DNA of 64,000 nucleotides from an uncultured Mycoplasma sp. (GCA_947646115.1 CANSFH010000002.1:27806-91805); one strand, 5' to 3'; shown: positions 3,074 to 36,567, counted from the first letter of the stretch. Translations and numbers: made by a program. Notes: generated by a model from the letters alone, not told the origin.

Positions 3074-3194
3074 AAATATAATATGTACATTAATACATAT
3101 TTTTTTAATGATAAATTTATAAGAAATCTTAAAAATTAAGTTCTTGACTAGATAATGAACATATAATATAATAAAAATATCTTAAATGTTGAAG

Positions 3195-3385
3195 GAATGA
3201 GTACATATAATTTATTTTAAAGAAAGTTCGTGGTAGATGCAAACGAATAATAAATAATATGGAAGATGACTCTGGAGTTTAAACGGCAACTCTCCGTTAT
3301 CGAGTTTGAGAGCATGAAAAAAATCATGAATTAAGGTGGTACCGCGGAATATAATTCGTCCTTAATTTATGGTTTTTATTTGTTT
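3195..3385 (+). promoter_or_regulatory. T-box riboswitch leader, probably Met-specific, with promoter TTGACT-N17-TATAAT at 3144..3172
   Basis: Conserved T-box sequence AATTAAGGTGGTACCGCGG at 3334..3352. A competing terminator (aattaagg...ccttaatt plus T-run) lies just before the RBS of the HAD-metG operon. Confidence 0.75.
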
Positions 3386-3400
3386 TAAAGGAGAATATTT

Positions 3401-4021
3401 ATGAAAAAAATAAAAAGAATAATCTTCGATTTAGATGATACCCTAATTCCATGGAAAAAAGAATATAGTGCAGGCTTTAAAAAAGCACTTAAAGATTTTA
3501 ATTTAGATTATGATAATACTGATGCCGATTTAGTTGCGTACTATGAATCGATTTACCCTAATTATAATTATGAAGCTTTATTAAAAACTTTTAATGAATT
3601 TACTGGTCTAAATGCCTCTATAGATTTTATCCAAACTTGGCAAAATTATTTAGGTGAAATGGCTGAACCAGATAATGAAATAATTGAAGTTTTAGAATAT
3701 TTAAGCAAGAAATATGATTTAGTAGTATTAACTAACTGGTTTAGAGATTCCCAAGCGAAAAGATTAGCTAAAGCGCGAATGCGTGACTATTTTAGTGCCG
3801 TGTATGGCGCTGATAATTATAAAAAGCCATCAATAGAAAGTTTTAAAGAGGCAATTGGCGATTTAGAACCTAGCGAATGTATAATGATAGGTGACAATTA
3901 TAAAGAAGATATAGAAGGCGCATTAAATTGTGGACTTAAAGCTATTTATTTAACTAATAGGGAAGGAGAATTTGCAGCTCCAACTATTAAAAGCTTAAAA
4001 GAATTAAAAGAAATTTTATAA
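3401..4021 (+). CDS. HAD-superfamily hydrolase
   Basis: Motif I IIFDLDDTL (DxDxT). It is the first gene of the T-box-controlled operon. Confidence 0.75.
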   Translation: MKKIKRIIFDLDDTLIPWKKEYSAGFKKALKDFNLDYDNTDADLVAYYESIYPNYNYEALLKTFNEFTGLNASIDFIQTWQNYLGEMAEPDNEIIEVLEYLSKKYDLVVLTNWFRDSQAKRLAKARMRDYFSAVYGADNYKKPSIESFKEAIGDLEPSECIMIGDNYKEDIEGALNCGLKAIYLTNREGEFAAPTIKSLKELKEIL

Positions 4022-4042: not shown

Positions 4043-5572
4043 ATGAATAAAAAATATTATGTATCTACTCCAATATATTATCCAAGTGCAGAATTTCATA
4101 TTGGTCATTGCTATACAACAATTATAGCTGATGCTCTAGCGAGATATAAAAGATTAACTGGTTATGATGTATACTATCAAACAGGAACAGATGAACATGG
4201 AGAGAAAATTGAAAAGAAAGCTGCATCCGCAGGTGTAACTCCAAAAGAATACGTTGATAAAATAATAGAAGACGCTAAAGATTTATGGCAATCTTTAAAT
4301 ATATCATATGATTTCTTTATGCGTACAACAGACGATTACCATGAAGCTTCTGTTCAAAAAATATTTAAAAAATTATATGAACAAGGAGATATTTATAAAG
4401 GCTCATATGAAGGACTATATTGTATCCCATGTGAATCCTTTTGGACAGAAACTCAAGCCGTGGACGGAAAATGTCCAGATTGTGGGCGAGAAGTTAAAAC
4501 AGTAAGTGAAGAAGCCTATTTCTTCAAACTATCTAAATATCAAGATCGTTTAGTTAAATTTTATAATGAACACCCAGATTTTATATTACCACTATCACGT
4601 AAAAATGAAATGCTAAATAACTTCATTAATCCAGGGCTAGAAGATTTATGTGTATCTCGTACTAGTTTTAAATGGGGAATACCAGTTGATTTTGACCCAG
4701 ACCACGTCGTTTATGTTTGGGTAGATGCTTTATCAAACTATATAACTACTTTAGGTTATCCCGATGAAAATAACGAACTATTTACAAAATACTGGCCAGC
4801 AGACCTTCACATTGTAGGTAAAGAAATTGTTAGATTCCATACTATTATTTGGCCTTGTTTATTAATGGCTCTTGATTTACCATTGCCACACCAAGTGTTT
4901 GGACATGGATGGTTAAAAATAGATGGTGGTAAAATCTCTAAAAGTTTAGGAAACTATAAAGACCCACGTGTATATATTAATGCTTATGGCGTTGATGCAG
5001 TAAGATATTATGCTCTTCGCGAAGTTCCCTTTGGACATGATGGTAATTTTTCTGAAGAAGCTCTAATATCTCGTACTAATGCTGATTTAGTAAATACTTT
5101 AGGCAATCTTGTTAACAGAACTATTAGTATGTCCCATAAATATTTTGATGGCATAGTTACTAATCCAAAAGTTGAAGAAGAGCTTGATAAAGATTTAATA
5201 ACTAATATTTTAGCTTTAAAAGATATCGTTGAAGAAAAAATGAACGAATTAAAAGTTAATGAAGCAATTGAAGAAATCATGGATGTATTAAGAAAGTGTA
5301 ATAAATACATTGATGACACAACACCATGGACTTTAGCTAAAGATGAAACAAAAAAAGAGCGCTTACAAACAATTCTATATAATCTTTTAGAAAGTATCCG
5401 TATTTGTACAATTCTTTTAACTCCATTTATTCCTGGAACTTGTGACAAAATATTAGCTAATTTAAATACTAAAGAAACATCTTATGATTCTATAAAAACA
5501 TTTGGTTTATTAGAAGAAGGTCTTAAACTAAATAATCCAGAAATCATATATAGTCGTATTGAAACTAAATAA
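4043..5572 (+). CDS. metG: Methionine--tRNA ligase, short form
   Basis: HIGH (HIGHCYT) and KMSKS (KISKS) motifs plus a CPDCG zinc knuckle. 509 aa, with no C-terminal tRNA-binding extension. Confidence 0.95.
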   Translation: MNKKYYVSTPIYYPSAEFHIGHCYTTIIADALARYKRLTGYDVYYQTGTDEHGEKIEKKAASAGVTPKEYVDKIIEDAKDLWQSLNISYDFFMRTTDDYHEASVQKIFKKLYEQGDIYKGSYEGLYCIPCESFWTETQAVDGKCPDCGREVKTVSEEAYFFKLSKYQDRLVKFYNEHPDFILPLSRKNEMLNNFINPGLEDLCVSRTSFKWGIPVDFDPDHVVYVWVDALSNYITTLGYPDENNELFTKYWPADLHIVGKEIVRFHTIIWPCLLMALDLPLPHQVFGHGWLKIDGGKISKSLGNYKDPRVYINAYGVDAVRYYALREVPFGHDGNFSEEALISRTNADLVNTLGNLVNRTISMSHKYFDGIVTNPKVEEELDKDLITNILALKDIVEEKMNELKVNEAIEEIMDVLRKCNKYIDDTTPWTLAKDETKKERLQTILYNLLESIRICTILLTPFIPGTCDKILANLNTKETSYDSIKTFGLLEEGLKLNNPEIIYSRIETK

Positions 5573-12414: not shown

Positions 12415-12527
12415 AATAAAATCACCAAACCTATTATAACTTACTATTTAAAATATATATAGTAAATTATTAATTTTTTCTTTAAAAATAACTAATAATT
12501 TGGTATTATAAAGCAGTGGTGAAACAT

Positions 12528-13130
12528 ATGGAAGAACTATTTCGTATCAATGGTAAGACAATTTATAATATAAACACTACCATTTTATATACTAGTGATT
12601 TTAATTTTAATGCTGATGCTATTATATATTTAAATAACGGCTGTCTTTTATTTGAAAAAAATGGTCGCTATAATATAAATGACATTTCTGATGAACTATT
12701 AGACATATTTGAATGTTTACCATTAAAAAATAAACAAAATTTAACTAAAATAGATGAAATTAAAATAAATATTCTTGGAAACTTATTAAGTCCCAAAAAA
12801 GTCTTTGTTTTCTTAAATATTTTCACATATTTAGATAATAAATTTAAAAATAAATTAATTAGTTTTCTTGCTAGGGCCAATAAAATAGTTATAAACTATA
12901 CCACTGATATTGAAGAAGTTTTATTATTTCCCTATTTAATAATCAGTCAAAAAAAACAAATAATTATTGAAGGAAATACAGAGGAAGTTTTAAAAGAAGA
13001 AAGAATAATTAAAAAATTAGGTTTTAATCTTCCATTTATTGTGGAATTATCAAGTGGATTAAAATACTATGGATTAGTTGATAAAGTTTATTTTAATAAT
13101 GAAAGCTTGGTGGAAGATTTATGGAAGTAG
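12528..13130 (+). CDS. Degenerate EcfA-like ABC ATPase (predicted inactive)
   Basis: ABC-ATPase-like layout, but Walker A is absent (ADAIIYLNNGCLLF), the signature is LSPKK instead of LSGGQ, and Walker B is YLD instead of DE. It occupies the ecfA1 position upstream of truA. Confidence 0.45.
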   Translation: MEELFRINGKTIYNINTTILYTSDFNFNADAIIYLNNGCLLFEKNGRYNINDISDELLDIFECLPLKNKQNLTKIDEIKINILGNLLSPKKVFVFLNIFTYLDNKFKNKLISFLARANKIVINYTTDIEEVLLFPYLIISQKKQIIIEGNTEEVLKEERIIKKLGFNLPFIVELSSGLKYYGLVDKVYFNNESLVEDLWK

Positions 13131-13738
13131 CAAGAATCCTCGAAAATAAAGCGCCCAATAAAATTTATGGAATAATGGGAAATATAGATATTACTGCTAA
13201 TAATGTAAATTATTCTCTTGTAACAGAGTTTAAATTTAGTGGTTCTGTTATGAATTATTTAAATAGTCCCAAAGCTAAAAATGCTCTTAAAATGGTAATG
13301 CTAACTGAAAATTATTTAGAAAAAAAAGTTGAAGATTTAAGCGAAACTGAAATAAAAAAAATAATTCTTGCGAATGCCTTAATTAAAAACAAAGAATATA
13401 TTGTATTAGATTACTTTGAAAAAGGAATAACTTACAAAGAACGAGAAAGTTTTAAAAGATTATTTCGCAAATTATCAAATGAATATCAAAAAAGCATTAT
13501 ACTATTTACCAATGATATAACTTTCCTTTGGGATATAGCTGATGAAATAATATATGTGGATAACAAAGAAGTTATTAACACTTTTACTAAAGATAAATAT
13601 TTTGAATTAGCTAAATTAGTAGATCAACCAGAAATAGTAAAATTTATCGAATTAATGCGCTCTAAAAATATTAATGTTGAAAACTATAAAAATGTTTTAG
13701 ATTTACTTAAAGCAATTTATAGAATTAAAGGTGAGTAA
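13121..13738 (+). CDS. Degenerate EcfA-like ABC ATPase (predicted inactive)
   Basis: Aligns by eye to the ABC signature/Walker B/H-loop block, but with LSETE for LSGGQ, LDYFE for ILDEPT, FTND for the H-loop and GIMGNIDIT for Walker A. It overlaps the previous gene by 10 nt. Confidence 0.5.
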   Translation: MEVARILENKAPNKIYGIMGNIDITANNVNYSLVTEFKFSGSVMNYLNSPKAKNALKMVMLTENYLEKKVEDLSETEIKKIILANALIKNKEYIVLDYFEKGITYKERESFKRLFRKLSNEYQKSIILFTNDITFLWDIADEIIYVDNKEVINTFTKDKYFELAKLVDQPEIVKFIELMRSKNINVENYKNVLDLLKAIYRIKGE

Positions 13739-13740
13739 CA

Positions 13741-14475
13741 ATGCATTATTTAATAAGTATAAAGTATGATGGTTCTAAATTTTATGGTTTTCAACGTTTA
13801 AAAGAAAAAGAATCAGTTCAAAAAAAATTAGAGGAAGCCTTAACTATCATTAATAAAAAAGAAGTTACTATAAAAGGTGCTGGAAGAACTGACCGTGGAG
13901 TTCATGCATTAGATCAAAAAGCAACTTTTGATTTAGATATAAATATTGCTCCTGTAAGATTAAAAAATGCGCTAAATAGTTTAGTTAAGCCTTATATTTA
14001 TATTACTGATGTTAAAGTGGTACATGATACATTTCATGCTAGATTTGATACATTAAAAAAAGAATATATTTATAAAATAAATTTAGGTGAATATGATCCT
14101 TTAAAAAAAGATTACTATTATGAGCCAGAATTCAAACTAAATATTAAAGAAATGAAAAAATGTGCTAAACTATTTATTGGCATTCATAACTTTAAAAATT
14201 TTGTATCAGGTACAAGAACAAATTATGATTGCATTATTTATAACATTAAGTTTAAGAAGAAAAAAAATATTCTTGAAATAAAATTTATTGGCAAAAGTTT
14301 TTATCGATATATGGTAAGAAATTTAGTAGGAGCCATGCTAGATGTTAGTATCAAAAGAATAAGTTTAGATGATATTAAAAATGCTTTAAATAGTCCTGAA
14401 AAGGAAAAAGCATTTAGTACTGCGGAAGCTCAAGGCTTATACTTAAACAAAATCTATTATAAAGGAGAAAAATAA
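13741..14475 (+). CDS. truA: tRNA pseudouridine(38-40) synthase
   Basis: Catalytic motif GAGRTDRGVHA. 244 aa, in the conserved position upstream of rplM-rpsI. Confidence 0.9.
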   Translation: MHYLISIKYDGSKFYGFQRLKEKESVQKKLEEALTIINKKEVTIKGAGRTDRGVHALDQKATFDLDINIAPVRLKNALNSLVKPYIYITDVKVVHDTFHARFDTLKKEYIYKINLGEYDPLKKDYYYEPEFKLNIKEMKKCAKLFIGIHNFKNFVSGTRTNYDCIIYNIKFKKKKNILEIKFIGKSFYRYMVRNLVGAMLDVSIKRISLDDIKNALNSPEKEKAFSTAEAQGLYLNKIYYKGEK

Positions 14476-14477
14476 AT

Positions 14478-14792
14478 ATGGATAACAACAATATACTAGT
14501 AGCGATGTTTGTCCAAAATTATGATAAAATGACTCAAGCTGTAGCAGGAAATATTAATTGGTTATATCAAATAGCATGCATAAATTGTACTTTAAGTTCC
14601 TTAATAGATGCCAAAGATCATTTAGATGAAATAAGTAAGTTTTATATATATAATACTCTTACTATTGCCATGTCTTTCGAAAGAAAATATGCTGGTTCTA
14701 GAATAGCTGAAGTAGAATCATTAAAAGCATATTTGGAAACATTAAAAAAATTATCAATTAAACGTGAAGACTTTAAAAGGTCATCAAGATAG
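14478..14792 (+). CDS. Hypothetical protein
   Basis: 104 aa. An AGGAG RBS lies 10 nt upstream and overlaps the end of truA. Confidence 0.45.
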   Translation: MDNNNILVAMFVQNYDKMTQAVAGNINWLYQIACINCTLSSLIDAKDHLDEISKFYIYNTLTIAMSFERKYAGSRIAEVESLKAYLETLKKLSIKREDFKRSSR

Positions 14793-14815
14793 CTATTATT
14801 TGCAAAATTTCTAAA
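14788..14815 (+). promoter_or_regulatory. Near-consensus sigma-A promoter with extended -10 (TTGCAA-N16-TGaTATAAT)
   Basis: TTGCAA at 14788..14793 and TATAAT at 14810..14815 preceded by TG. It points into the ORF-free GC-rich segment. Confidence 0.6.
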
Positions 14816-14822
14816 ATATGAT

Positions 14823-15405
14823 ATAATTATATTTCGAAATGGCACATTATTCTAGTCAATACATATTACGAAGACGAATGTAAAAGATCGTTACAGAGCA
14901 CATCTATGAAACTTCTGGTGCTTGCTTCTTGCGCCCAGCTTGGGGTGAGTGCTGGAAATGAAGATTTCTTGGGCGACCATAATGGCATATGGCAAACGCC
15001 CCAGGTTATCGCGGAGACCTAACTTTGTGGAATAAATAATTCTACGAACTAGGCTTGAACCTACTTGTGGCGAAAGTTATGAGTAGTGTAGCTTGGCTTG
15101 AGTGGGAAACGGGGATAAATGACAGCTAAATCTGGCGTGTACATGTTACAGATTTAGTATTGCTTTTTGAAACGTTTACTGCAAAAGAGCATAAGTAATG
15201 GGGGTATTGTCGAGGAAAACTCCTAGAGTGCATATTAGAGTAAGATTGCAGTGTGTACTAAGTGGCAATCAGGTAATAAGATAGGTAACTACTTATTTAT
15301 TCCTTTAAATGGGAACGGCCTACGTGGTAACATTTAGGTAGGGATAAGGGAAATCCAACCTGACCTTAAGTCGCAAAGTTTATTATTTTAATAGCCATTT
15401 CAAAA
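14823..15405 (+). ncRNA. Large structured non-coding RNA, candidate OLE-like
   Basis: About 580 nt with no ORF in any frame and roughly 45% GC against a roughly 27% background. Perfect local stems are visible (cttgggg/ccccagg near 14935..14995 and agctaaatctg/cagatttagt near 15120..15160). It has its own promoter and is followed by a 4-TM membrane protein gene. Confidence 0.5.
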
Positions 15406-15421
15406 TTAAATAGGTAATAAT

Positions 15422-16012
15422 ATGAAAGATAAAAAGAATAAAGAAAAATATAATAAAAAAGCAAGCAAACAAAATAAGAATGTAAATATGAAAGCAGATT
15501 ATAAATGGATAGTGACAATAACACTGACAGCTTTTATAATCACTTTTGTTATGAGTTCATTTTCTGAAATTGCTCTAAAAGATATAAGTTTAATTTTTGG
15601 TATCTTAATAGTAGTAATTTTTATAGCTTTAGGAATAATTTTTGATATGATTGGTGTTTCTGTAACTGTCGCTGATAAAAAAGTATTTCACTCTATGGCT
15701 GCCAAAAAAGTAAGTGGCGCACGAGTAGCTTTAAAACTTATTGAAAACAATTCTAAAGTTTCCAGTTTTTGTAATGATGTTATTGGCGATATATGTGGTA
15801 TTCTATCTGGTACTGCCGCATCTACCATTGCTATATTATTAGCTAACGAATTAAAAATAAACTTATTTTTAGTCACATTAATTATTACTAGTTTAATCGC
15901 TGCCTTTACAATTGGAGGTAAAGCTTTAGGTAAAAGCATAGCAATAAATCATTCTAATAATATTTTATATAAGTTTGCTAAAGTTTTAAAAATATTTAGT
16001 AAGGAAAAATAA
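15422..16012 (+). CDS. Small 4-TM membrane protein, possibly OapA-like
   Basis: 196 aa (about 21 kDa) with a lysine-rich N-terminus and four hydrophobic helices. It lies immediately after the ncRNA candidate with no intervening terminator. Confidence 0.5.
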   Translation: MKDKKNKEKYNKKASKQNKNVNMKADYKWIVTITLTAFIITFVMSSFSEIALKDISLIFGILIVVIFIALGIIFDMIGVSVTVADKKVFHSMAAKKVSGARVALKLIENNSKVSSFCNDVIGDICGILSGTAASTIAILLANELKINLFLVTLIITSLIAAFTIGGKALGKSIAINHSNNILYKFAKVLKIFSKEK

Positions 16013-16204
16013 TATAATTATATAAAAAACCAATAAATTGTCAAAAATGATAGAAAAAAATGCAAAAAATAAAAAATCTATCATTTTTCATTTGACAAAA
16101 CCATATAATTTACATATAATTTTAAATGGTACATTTTATTTGTTGGAGTTCCAATACCCTGGGAAAGTAGAAAGAACGAAAACTAATGAAAGGAAAAAAT
16201 AGTT

Positions 16205-16636
16205 ATGAAGACATTCATGCAAACAAAAGAAAACATTGAACGTAATTGGTATGTAATCGATGCTGAAGGAAAAAATTTAGGTCGTGTTGCTACTAAAGCT
16301 GCAACTATCCTTAGAGGAAAACATAAAGTTACATATACTCCTCACGTAGACTGTGGAGATTATGTAATTATTGTTAACGCAGCAAAAGTTAATTTAACTG
16401 GAAATAAGTTAAATGACAAAATGTATTATAATCACTCTGGATTTCCAGGAGGATTAAGAGAAAGAAACGCTAAAACTATGATTGAAAAGTATCCAGAAGA
16501 AATGCTTGAAAGAGCTGTAAAAGGTATGCTTCCTCATGGTGCCTTAGGCAGAAAAATGGGTAAGAAATTATTCGTTTATGCTGATGGAAACCATAAACAT
16601 GAAGCACAAAAACCTGTTTCTATGGATATTGATTAG
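16205..16636 (+). CDS. rplM: 50S ribosomal protein L13
   Basis: 143 aa with the typical L13 sequence ([14 protein letters not shown]...). Confidence 0.95.
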
Positions 16637-16648
16637 GAGGTATAATTA

Positions 16649-17065
16649 ATGGCTAAACAAGTTTGGACTGCAACAGGTCGTCGTAAAAGAAGTTCTGCTC
16701 AAGTAAGAATTACTGGTGGAACTGGAAATATTACAGTAAACGGAGTAGACGTTAATGAATATTTTCCAAACCAAATCTTAGTTATGGATTTAAAACAACC
16801 ATTAACTGTAACAAATAACGACAATCGTTTTGATATTGAAGTAACAGTTAAAGGTGGAGGATTCTCTGGTCAAGCTGGAGCTATTCGTTTAGGTATTGCA
16901 AGAGCATTACTTGAATTTGATGCTAACACTGATCAAACAAGAGAAGATTCTTATCGTAAAATTTTAAAAACAAACGGTTTCTTAACTCGTGATGCTAGAG
17001 TAAAAGAACGTAAAAAATACGGTCTTAAAAAAGCTCGTCGCGCACCACAATTCTCAAAGAGATAA
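16649..17065 (+). CDS. rpsI: 30S ribosomal protein S9
   Basis: C-terminal ...[19 protein letters not shown]...[25 protein letters not shown]. Confidence 0.95.
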
Positions 17066-36490: not shown

Positions 36491-36567
36491 TGGCGGAATT
36501 GGTGAAGGGGTTAACACGGCAGATTGTGGCTCTGTTATGCATGGGTTCGAATCCCATATTTCGCCCC
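36491..36567 (+). tRNA. tRNA-His (anticodon GTG)
   Basis: G-1:C73 pair, acceptor GCGGAAT/ATTTCGC, anticodon loop TTGTGGC, T-arm GGGTTCGAATCCC, CCA encoded. It is near-identical in layout to B. subtilis tRNA-His. Confidence 0.85.

Follow-up and report, generated by a model that had tools for sequence, protein, structure and literature searches.

We begin by asking what is encoded between truA and rplM in the stretch of DNA considered here (64,000 nucleotides, referred to as the window), where a GC-rich region with little coding potential is followed by the gene of a small membrane protein. The first-pass annotation, made from the sequence alone, proposed an OLE-like RNA with an oapA-like partner or, as a fallback, an uncharacterised large RNA. 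Our analysis makes it almost certain that the locus is an ole-oapA operon, in which the gene of the OLE (ornate, large, extremophilic) RNA is followed by oapA, the gene of its membrane anchor. The original proposal is upheld by a full-length match to the Rfam family RF01071, by covariation among homologs and by the hallmarks of OapA in the downstream protein.

Identity of the RNA

The region 14823-15405 does lack ORFs of 60 aa or more, as first described: a 67-aa ORF on the minus strand (14642-14845) overlaps its first 23 nt only, and the ORFs of at least 40 aa inside it are limited to two on the minus strand, 14866-14988 (40 aa) and 15366-15524 (52 aa). The reported rise in GC content is also real, with 39.3% over 14823-15405 against 26.0% for the window, and this region is the highest-GC 583-nt stretch in the whole 64 kb. 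The figure of about 45% that had been given for it, however, applies to the 5' half only (46.2% at 14900-15120). For annotation, the locus is a large non-coding gene of the sort left blank by ORF-based pipelines. One gene caller set a spurious 14-aa product inside the OLE RNA.

A scan with the Rfam covariance models, which the first-pass annotation had suggested as a check, matches OLE (RF01071) at 14823-15414 on the plus strand with 381.9 bits (E = 1.2e-108, gathering score 50). The match covers positions 1-616 of the 616 in the model and is not truncated; we take 14823-15414 as the extent of the OLE RNA gene and 14836-15401 as its conserved structured core. When 14788-16012 is compared with all Rfam families, OLE is the sole match, and RNase P RNA, tmRNA and the others are absent, which bears out the earlier judgement by eye that neither RNase P nor tmRNA fits. 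Elsewhere in the 64-kb window the only other Rfam matches are a T-box (3180-3366) and a tRNA (36493-36565).

The copies of relatives score 349-389 bits against the same model, and those of Bacillus salacetis and Alkaliphilus, which were retrieved with the same oapA query as the relatives, score 506-536 bits. The window copy is thus about 130-150 bits below canonical Bacillus/Alkaliphilus OLE (382 vs 506-536), because the host has 26% GC and the stems are rich in A and U.

Could this be a different, uncharacterised large structured RNA that is OLE-like only in size and context? The flanking genes truA and rplM do differ from the OLE context given in the earlier note. Against this, the covariance-model match is full-length at E 1e-108, the conserved OLE blocks (listed below) are invariant, and the genes that flank OLE loci vary anyway, so that we give such an RNA practically no credence. 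With RF01071 matched end to end, the fallback of an uncharacterised RNA is superfluous. Nothing that we find speaks against the OLE identification, and the window copy is an ordinary, full-length OLE, of a family already described, at a locus that was left unannotated.

A published survey lists 2,822 OLE hits across Bacillota genomes, uncultured gut clades included (PMC11332333). OLE biology gains little here beyond a further full-length copy, whose host is an AT-rich gut bacterium known only from uncultured material. Three features of the locus are potentially useful: a position-conserved promoter that fixes the likely 5' end of OLE RNA, a compact unit of RNA and OapA amid ribosomal-protein genes, and a GUAC loop palindrome that is consistent with the published OLE dimer model.

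Conservation of the RNA structure

Is the structure of this RNA maintained in its relatives? The loci were gathered via the downstream protein and comprise 6 contigs encoding the same protein and 80 GTDB-representative loci. Using the window RNA as the query (nhmmer), an OLE homolog is found directly upstream, on the same strand, at 81 of these 86 oapA-homolog loci. Among the five exceptions, two have no upstream sequence and three (L024, L053 and L065) have no OLE within 4 kb. The alignment contains 72 full-length copies (the window and 71 homologs) and was made with MAFFT, not fitted to structure. The Rfam consensus structure is projected onto it via the window sequence, and the same structure with the 3' partners slid by 1-3 columns serves as the control.

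The Rfam structure has 147 pairs, 134 of them canonical in the window. Over these pairs 89.8% of the cells are paired across the alignment, compared with 38-46% in the slid controls, and the covariation score is 0.491 against 0.10-0.14; changes on both sides are seen at 117 of the 147. RNAalifold independently recovers most of the same stems and adds long-range pairs. The 31 long-range pairs that are absent from the Rfam structure line are 85% paired (34-45% when slid), and 23 of them have changed on both sides. The duplex of the P3 stalk forms from quite different sequences in 8 sampled homologs. The covariation check that had been suggested for this RNA therefore returns extensive compensatory changes. 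Judging from the alignment, such changes preserve about 25 helices, the long-range P1-P3.1 stalk among them.

The sequence is conserved as well. There are 111 invariant columns in the 72 sequences, all of them present in the window copy, and the conserved OLE blocks UUCUAGU, GCCCAG, AAUGGCAU, GGAGAC, UGAAA, GAGGAAA, CCUAG, ACUAAGUGG and GGGAAAUCC are invariant.

These results bear on a second alternative, in which the region is a decayed protein gene, or a non-functional OLE relic in a reduced genome. Genes do decay nearby in the host lineage (EcfA-like ORFs with no ecfT), and one small OLE hairpin is missing. The compensatory changes, on the other hand, occur within the same clade and require selection on RNA structure; other strains of the species have virtually the same copy, and neither the promoter nor the partner gene is damaged. 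A conserved ORF was sought in the homologous regions and none was found, the longest stop-free stretch having a median of 69 aa and being unshared; a protein-coding gene at this place in relatives was what the first-pass annotation had named as the finding that would turn the RNA into a pseudogene. Because the pairs covary and the homologs have no conserved reading frame, the pseudogene alternative is excluded, and we consider decay as a whole extremely improbable.

Architecture of the RNA

We turn to the anatomy of this OLE RNA, in which all features lie on the plus strand and the stem names are deduced from the text of three papers (PMC12265935, PMC12286853, PMC9723947). The closing helix P1 has its 5' strand at 14836-14843 (GAAATGGC), pairs with 15394-15401 (GCCATTTC) and has double changes at 7 of its 8 pairs across the homologs. 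It is followed by P2, which contains CUAG (14845-14847 and 14851-14855, pairing with 15223-15230), P3 (14857-14862 with 15204-15209) and P3.1 (14865-14869 with 15195-15199). In the published model, the P2-P3.1 stalk joins the two domains of the RNA and has OapA sites at its flanks (PMC12265935, PMC12286853, PMC9723947).

The P4 hairpin (14873-14892) has the loop UGUAAAAG with a conserved run of A at 14882-14885. Alignment positions T59, A60, A61 and A62 are invariant in the 72 sequences, as is UAAAA in L4, and these A's of the P4 loop correspond to the A-A bridge that links the dimer in the cryo-EM structure (PMC12286853). A junction helix (14896-14899 with 15091-15094) is among the long-range pairs tested above. 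The near-palindrome after P4 is imperfect in the window (CAUCUAUG, 14901-14908) and would correspond to one of the published OapA sites.

Both the P5/P5.1 hairpin (14912-14958, loop GCCCA) and the P6 hairpin (14963-15010, conserved loop AUGGCA) are supported by the Rfam match and by covariation. On either side of P5/P5.1 are UGAAA (14907-14911) and GGAGAC (15013-15018), which make up the k-turn described as the OapC site (PMC9723947, PMC12286853), and P6 lies in the region of the published bS21 site (PMC12054373). The hairpins P7 (15018-15053) and P8 (15061-15086) are present and covary. P9 is a long hairpin of 97 nt (15095-15191), with a distal helix formed by 15125-15134 and 15149-15158.

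Two local helices had been pointed out at the outset. One of them (agctaaatctg...cagatttagt) is real and is this distal arm of P9. The other (cttgggg...ccccagg) is complementary on paper, but its halves, 14940-14946 and 15000-15006, are the 3' strands of successive hairpins in the conserved fold, and the proposed pairing is rejected. For the distal P9 arm, the register given by cmscan has 15 mostly non-canonical pairs and was replaced by the evident 10-bp helix. Two relatives (L018 and L019) lack the distal P9 arm.

The 3' domain spans 15212-15393. It opens with the hairpin GAG-GAAAA-CUC (15212-15222), followed by CCUAG, and then by an enclosing helix (15233-15243 with 15383-15393). The four-way-junction region contains two GUAA-capped hairpins, one with a single-nucleotide bulge (15276-15296), which is the equivalent of P13, and a second at 15318-15339. 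Helices 13-19 of this domain are 91-100% paired across the alignment. Since the GNRA loop and bulge of P13 form the published OapB site (PMC7936274), the motif nucleotides of both the OapB and the OapC sites (UGAAA, GGAGAC and the GUAA loop with a 1-nt bulge) are present, as far as sequence goes. The hairpin that is missing, with 4 bp and 12 nt at model positions 424-435, is absent from the window copy and from all gut relatives aligned, and is kept in the Alkaliphilus, Bacillus and some Clostridia copies.

This architecture can be compared with those of the OLE RNAs already studied, from Halalkalibacterium halodurans, Clostridium acetobutylicum and C. botulinum. The likeness extends to the length (about 570-590 nt), to P1-P10 and the P12-P15 region, to the conserved blocks, to an L4 rich in A, a palindrome in the P9 loop, the nucleotides of the k-turn and a bulged P13 with a GNRA cap, and to oapA immediately downstream. 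The window copy differs in having its own promoter, in its location between truA and rplM and in the absence of the hairpin at model 424-435.

Two OLE variants have hosts of a similar kind, namely uncultured low-GC gut Bacillota that are available as metagenome assemblies only (RF39 variant 2 and TANB77 variant 1; PMC11332333). Variant 2, of the RF39 clade, is without P7 and P8 (Fernando and Breaker 2024, PMC11332333), and in variant 1, of the TANB77 clade, P7-P9 are short and the OapB site in P13 is often missing (PMC11332333). We reject the first assignment on the covarying P7 and P8, and the second on the 97-nt P9 and the P13 GUAA loop with its bulge. With P7, P8, a long P9 and the P13 loop, the window OLE is of the full-length type.

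The loop of P9 holds the self-complementary UGUACA (15138-15143), a candidate kissing-loop dimer contact. A palindromic tetranucleotide is found in the P9 loop of 64 of 70 homologs (GGCC in 29, GUAC in 24, AGCU in 8 and others in 3), compared with 35% of shuffled loops. The cryo-EM work describes an intermolecular kissing loop and reports swaps among GGCC, GAUC and AGCU (PMC12286853); these are the palindromes given in the main text of that paper, whereas the window palindrome is GUAC. If the contact is real, a kissing loop with GUAC would add another independent swap in favour of dimerisation of the RNA. The elements for a homodimer, the A-rich L4 and the palindromic P9 loop, are thus both present at the level of sequence.

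The OapA partner protein

The gene that follows, oapA (15422-16012, plus strand), encodes a protein of 196 aa and 21.4 kDa with four membrane helices and a DxxxD motif. All that had been said of it, namely 196 aa, about 21 kDa, four hydrophobic helices and a Lys-rich N-terminus, is confirmed. The hydrophobic segments lie at about residues 30-48, 55-73, 120-141 and 146-164, the first 27 residues include 10 Lys/Arg, and the AlphaFold model has long helices at 27-52, 57-83, 110-144 and 148-176. The DxxxD motif is D119-V-I-G-D123, within the invariant FCNDVIGD.

The protein has 4,329 database relatives at E <=0.001. With the proteins of Bacillus salacetis and Alkaliphilus whose genes adjoin canonical OLE it shares 42-44% identity, and the invariant blocks in that alignment are FDM.G, FCNDVIGD and T.GGKA.GK. 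It has the published hallmarks of the OapA family: a size of about 21 kDa, four helices that span the membrane, the DxxxD motif, a weak similarity to CNNM and a gene placed after ole. Nothing notable sets it apart from the family; its N-terminal tail is unusually Lys-rich and poorly conserved.

The similarity to CNNM proteins needs some care. The Pfam CNNM domain (PF01595) is matched marginally, with 30.4 bits against a threshold of 28.4, and no other domains are found; a weak CNNM match is the published behaviour of OapA (PMC11332333). The window OapA has zero prolines and so lacks the conserved CNNM proline. A PDB sequence search with OapA gives no match at E up to 1, and the relation to the CorB/CorC membrane domain is visible only by fold comparison, by which the modelled OapA has a CorB/CorC-like transmembrane fold. 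The CNNM/CorB/CorC/MpfA transporters differ from the window OapA, which is without the CBS pair and without CorC/HlyC, nothing following its membrane domain. Three membrane helices are published for the CorB monomer, whereas the window OapA has four, with DxxxD and without proline. We considered and rejected a CorC/MpfA Mg2+ transporter: the protein is OapA and not such a transporter because its 196 aa comprise a membrane domain only, with no CBS or CorC domain. OapA stands outside the CNNM/CorC transporter family, though it possibly works in a related way (PMC11332333).

Promoter and transcription unit

Upstream of the RNA, the promoter scan recovers the TTGCAA-N16-TGaTATAAT element described in the first-pass annotation and finds its position conserved in homologs. 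The promoter (14800-14827, plus strand) consists of a -35 TTGCAA (14800-14805), a 16-nt spacer with the TG of an extended -10 at 14819-14820, and TATAAT (14822-14827). Promoter-like matches are common in AT-rich DNA (30 found, with 21 expected), and for this reason the positional conservation was tested. A promoter with at least 10 of 12 matching positions, 8-16 nt upstream of the P1 anchor, is present at 49 of the 72 OLE loci (68%), compared with 0.7% of random anchors drawn from the same loci, and the TG extension is seen at 50 of the 72. By its elements, the OLE promoter is of the sigma-A/sigma-70 type and lies immediately upstream of the 5' end of the RNA. Transcription would start at about 14834-14836, coinciding with the first conserved helix.

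From the end of P1 (15401) to the ATG of oapA (15422) there is a spacer of 20 nt without predicted structure. Scanning finds neither a terminator nor a promoter between OLE and oapA, in agreement with the earlier statement that no terminator separates the RNA from the next gene. Co-transcription of OLE and oapA is accordingly a prediction well supported by the sequence.

Downstream of oapA there is a weak terminator-like element (16046-16090, plus strand), with a 9-bp A/U-rich stem (16046-16054 with 16077-16085), a 22-nt loop and UUUUU. This hairpin has a folding energy of -6.2 kcal/mol (z -4.4) and is missed by a scan that requires G+C. The element is not conserved in L088, whereas in L007, a sister species, a canonical terminator occupies this place. 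A perfect promoter for rplM-rpsI, TTGACA-17-TATAAT, follows at 16092-16120 (plus strand) and is conserved together with its leader in L088. We find no L13 leader or other Rfam family in 15990-16260 at permissive E-values. A perfect antisense promoter opposite oapA (16044..16017, minus strand) is not conserved in L088 and is set aside as due to chance or specific to the species.

The arrangement raises a third alternative, that the RNA acts mainly in cis, as a long structured 5' leader controlling the translation or stability of oapA, and not as a processed trans-acting particle. Promoter, RNA and oapA do form a compact unit with an unstructured 20-nt spacer and no internal terminator or promoter, and the linkage of OLE to oapA is nearly universal (81 of 86 loci). 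We nevertheless judge this quite improbable. Other genes stand between OLE and oapA in several relatives, no OLE lies within 4 kb of three oapA homologs, and about 25 covarying helices far exceed what a leader requires. Moreover, the published OLE is an abundant RNA that binds the proteins OapA, OapB, OapC and bS21 and forms RNA-only dimers (PMC12265935, PMC12286853).

Proposed mechanism

For the trans-acting OLE particle that we prefer, a working model can be assembled from the published systems. A single transcript from near 14835 would run through the RNA and oapA, as suggested by the OLE work in H. halodurans and Clostridium. The RNA of about 570 nt would fold, like published OLE, into two domains joined by the P3 stalk, and would form homodimers via the A-rich L4 and the UGUACA loop of P9. 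OapA dimers would bind the RNA and keep it at or in the membrane (PMC12265935). The particle would help the cell to withstand too much Mg2+, cold, alcohols and growth on poor carbon sources (PMC12265935, PMC12054373, PMC10898510), the likely route being modulation of an OapA cation pathway together with contacts to bS21 and other translation factors. That the RNA is transcribed with oapA, processed, dimerised, bound by OapA and located at the membrane is thus predicted here by analogy with other species.

Genomic context and host

The remaining question concerns the neighbourhood. The locus lies between truA (13741-14475) and rplM/rpsI (16205-17065), a position peculiar to this genus, with neighbours that had been correctly read and had been held against OLE; the objection itself does not stand, as the context varies among OLE loci. 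Apart from contigs of the same species, only L007 and a widespread relative, P0022, share the order (degenerate ecfA-like pair)-truA-[orf104]-OLE-oapA-rplM-rpsI-...-mnmE; their OapA proteins are 83% (L007) and 82% (P0022) identical to that of the window. Strains of the same species have an essentially identical OLE copy. In more distant gut relatives, OLE-oapA follows an MscS-channel gene in one, and lies between an HD-domain gene near rplQ and rimP-nusA-infB in another. Because the contexts of the relatives differ in this way, it is a mobile context that accounts for the unusual synteny, with no need for a different RNA. In some relatives a gene is inserted between OLE and oapA, encoding a ~190-aa unknown protein or a cold-shock protein, or being larger. 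Gene decay is seen nearby in the host lineage, where the EcfA-like ORFs are degenerate and ecfT is missing.

A Pfam scan of ten further ORFs in the window finds no OapB-like (KOW), OapC-like (L7Ae) or MpfA-like protein among them, and the absence of OapB/OapC has been reported for other gut clades. We tentatively raise the idea, though we think it rather unlikely to be right, that in this gut lineage of reduced genomes ole and oapA form an autonomous module of two genes, driven by a conserved promoter of its own, which has repeatedly moved into translation-related operons and which would amount to a minimal particle of RNA and OapA if the host as a whole is also without OapB and OapC. If such a minimal particle exists, its location would suggest a functional link with the ribosome, which would agree with the binding of bS21 that has been published.

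The host is an uncultured low-GC (26% G+C) gut bacterium. Known OLE hosts belong to the Bacillota and are typically anaerobic, spore-forming or both; for the present host, genes for SpoIIR and desulfoferrodoxin are encoded in the window or in the relatives. The titles of database records are an unreliable guide to taxonomy, some being plainly wrong, and Ca. Scybalousia, for one, is listed with the Bacteroidales.

Variation of the OLE-oapA locus in relatives

We begin with the collected loci that encode relatives of OapA, the membrane-protein partner of OLE RNA. At three of them (L024, L053 and L065) the oapA homologs are 50-55% identical, and no OLE RNA is found by nhmmer or Rfam searches within 4 kb on either side of the homolog. 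In the OLE copies at two other loci, L018 and L019, whose source records are titled Bacilli and Mollicutes, the long P9 hairpin lacks its entire distal arm (columns 438-489 of A1, the MAFFT alignment of OLE copies) and therefore the kissing loop, the candidate dimer contact. Despite the missing arm, the L019 RNA scores 382 bits.

Additional genes can lie between OLE and oapA. In one subclade (L037, L046, L062, L075 and L079, at about 3300-4000 in each locus), this position is occupied by a conserved ORF whose product starts M..SKIKFYSLGSEKIDLSKI and has about 190 residues (110 in L046); it is a candidate for a further OLE-associated protein. OLE mutants of H. halodurans are cold-sensitive, which makes it notable that the gene located between OLE and oapA in the collected locus L028 (3551-4001) encodes a cold-shock protein (KVKWFNNDKGYGFIE...).

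A "14-residue product" is placed inside the OLE RNA by the public gene call in two of the loci (L001, 3418-3777; L005, 1773-2132), so the OLE region is mis-annotated in existing assemblies. For several OLE-oapA loci (L016, L017, L027, L030, L045 and others), the source bin carries the label Muribaculaceae, Bacteroidaceae or Ca. Scybalousia, the last of which NCBI taxonomy places in Bacteroidales. These bins are probably mislabelled or contaminated, as was likewise suspected for non-Bacillota hits in the published OLE survey (PMC11332333).

Genes and signals around the operon in the window

Between truA and the OLE promoter is an ORF of 104 aa (14478-14792) that has no match in Pfam or NCBIfam. 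It is found in the same-species contigs. In the sister species (L007) and at another collected locus, L088, it is missing, and OLE directly follows truA.

Upstream of truA lie two ORFs (12516-13130 and 13121-13738) that overlap and are each about 204 aa long. Their matches, which have weak NCBIfam scores, are confined to the C-terminal halves of EcfA1 and EcfA2, the ATPases of ECF transporters. Neither has a Pfam ABC_tran match and, on inspection by eye, no Walker A is seen, LSETE replaces LSGGQ and Walker B is degenerate; no ecfT gene is found between the pair and truA. Because both reading frames are preserved in L007 (55% identity), and likewise in L088 and L089 (a further collected locus), the pair looks like conserved, catalytically dead remnants of ATPases.

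The region upstream of rplM (16092-16204) holds a perfect TTGACA-17-TATAAT promoter followed by an 85-nt leader. About 70 nt of this region are almost identical in L088 with divergent flanks, and the leader matches no Rfam family, including the L13 leader; one possibility is an r-protein leader that has yet to be catalogued. On the minus strand, a second perfect consensus (TTGACA-16-TATAAT, 16017-16044) is directed into the 3' end of oapA, antisense to the gene; L088 does not conserve it. At L004 (1858-4240), a locus from a different strain of the window's species, rpsI is immediately followed by genes for a phage integrase and an S24/HTH repressor and by a DUF739 gene, which suggests that a prophage or island insertion site adjoins the operon.

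Elsewhere in the window, a T-box leader (3180-3366, 111.9 bits) lies upstream of two ORFs, 3401-4021 and 4043-5572; the second has MetRS-type domains of class I tRNA synthetases.
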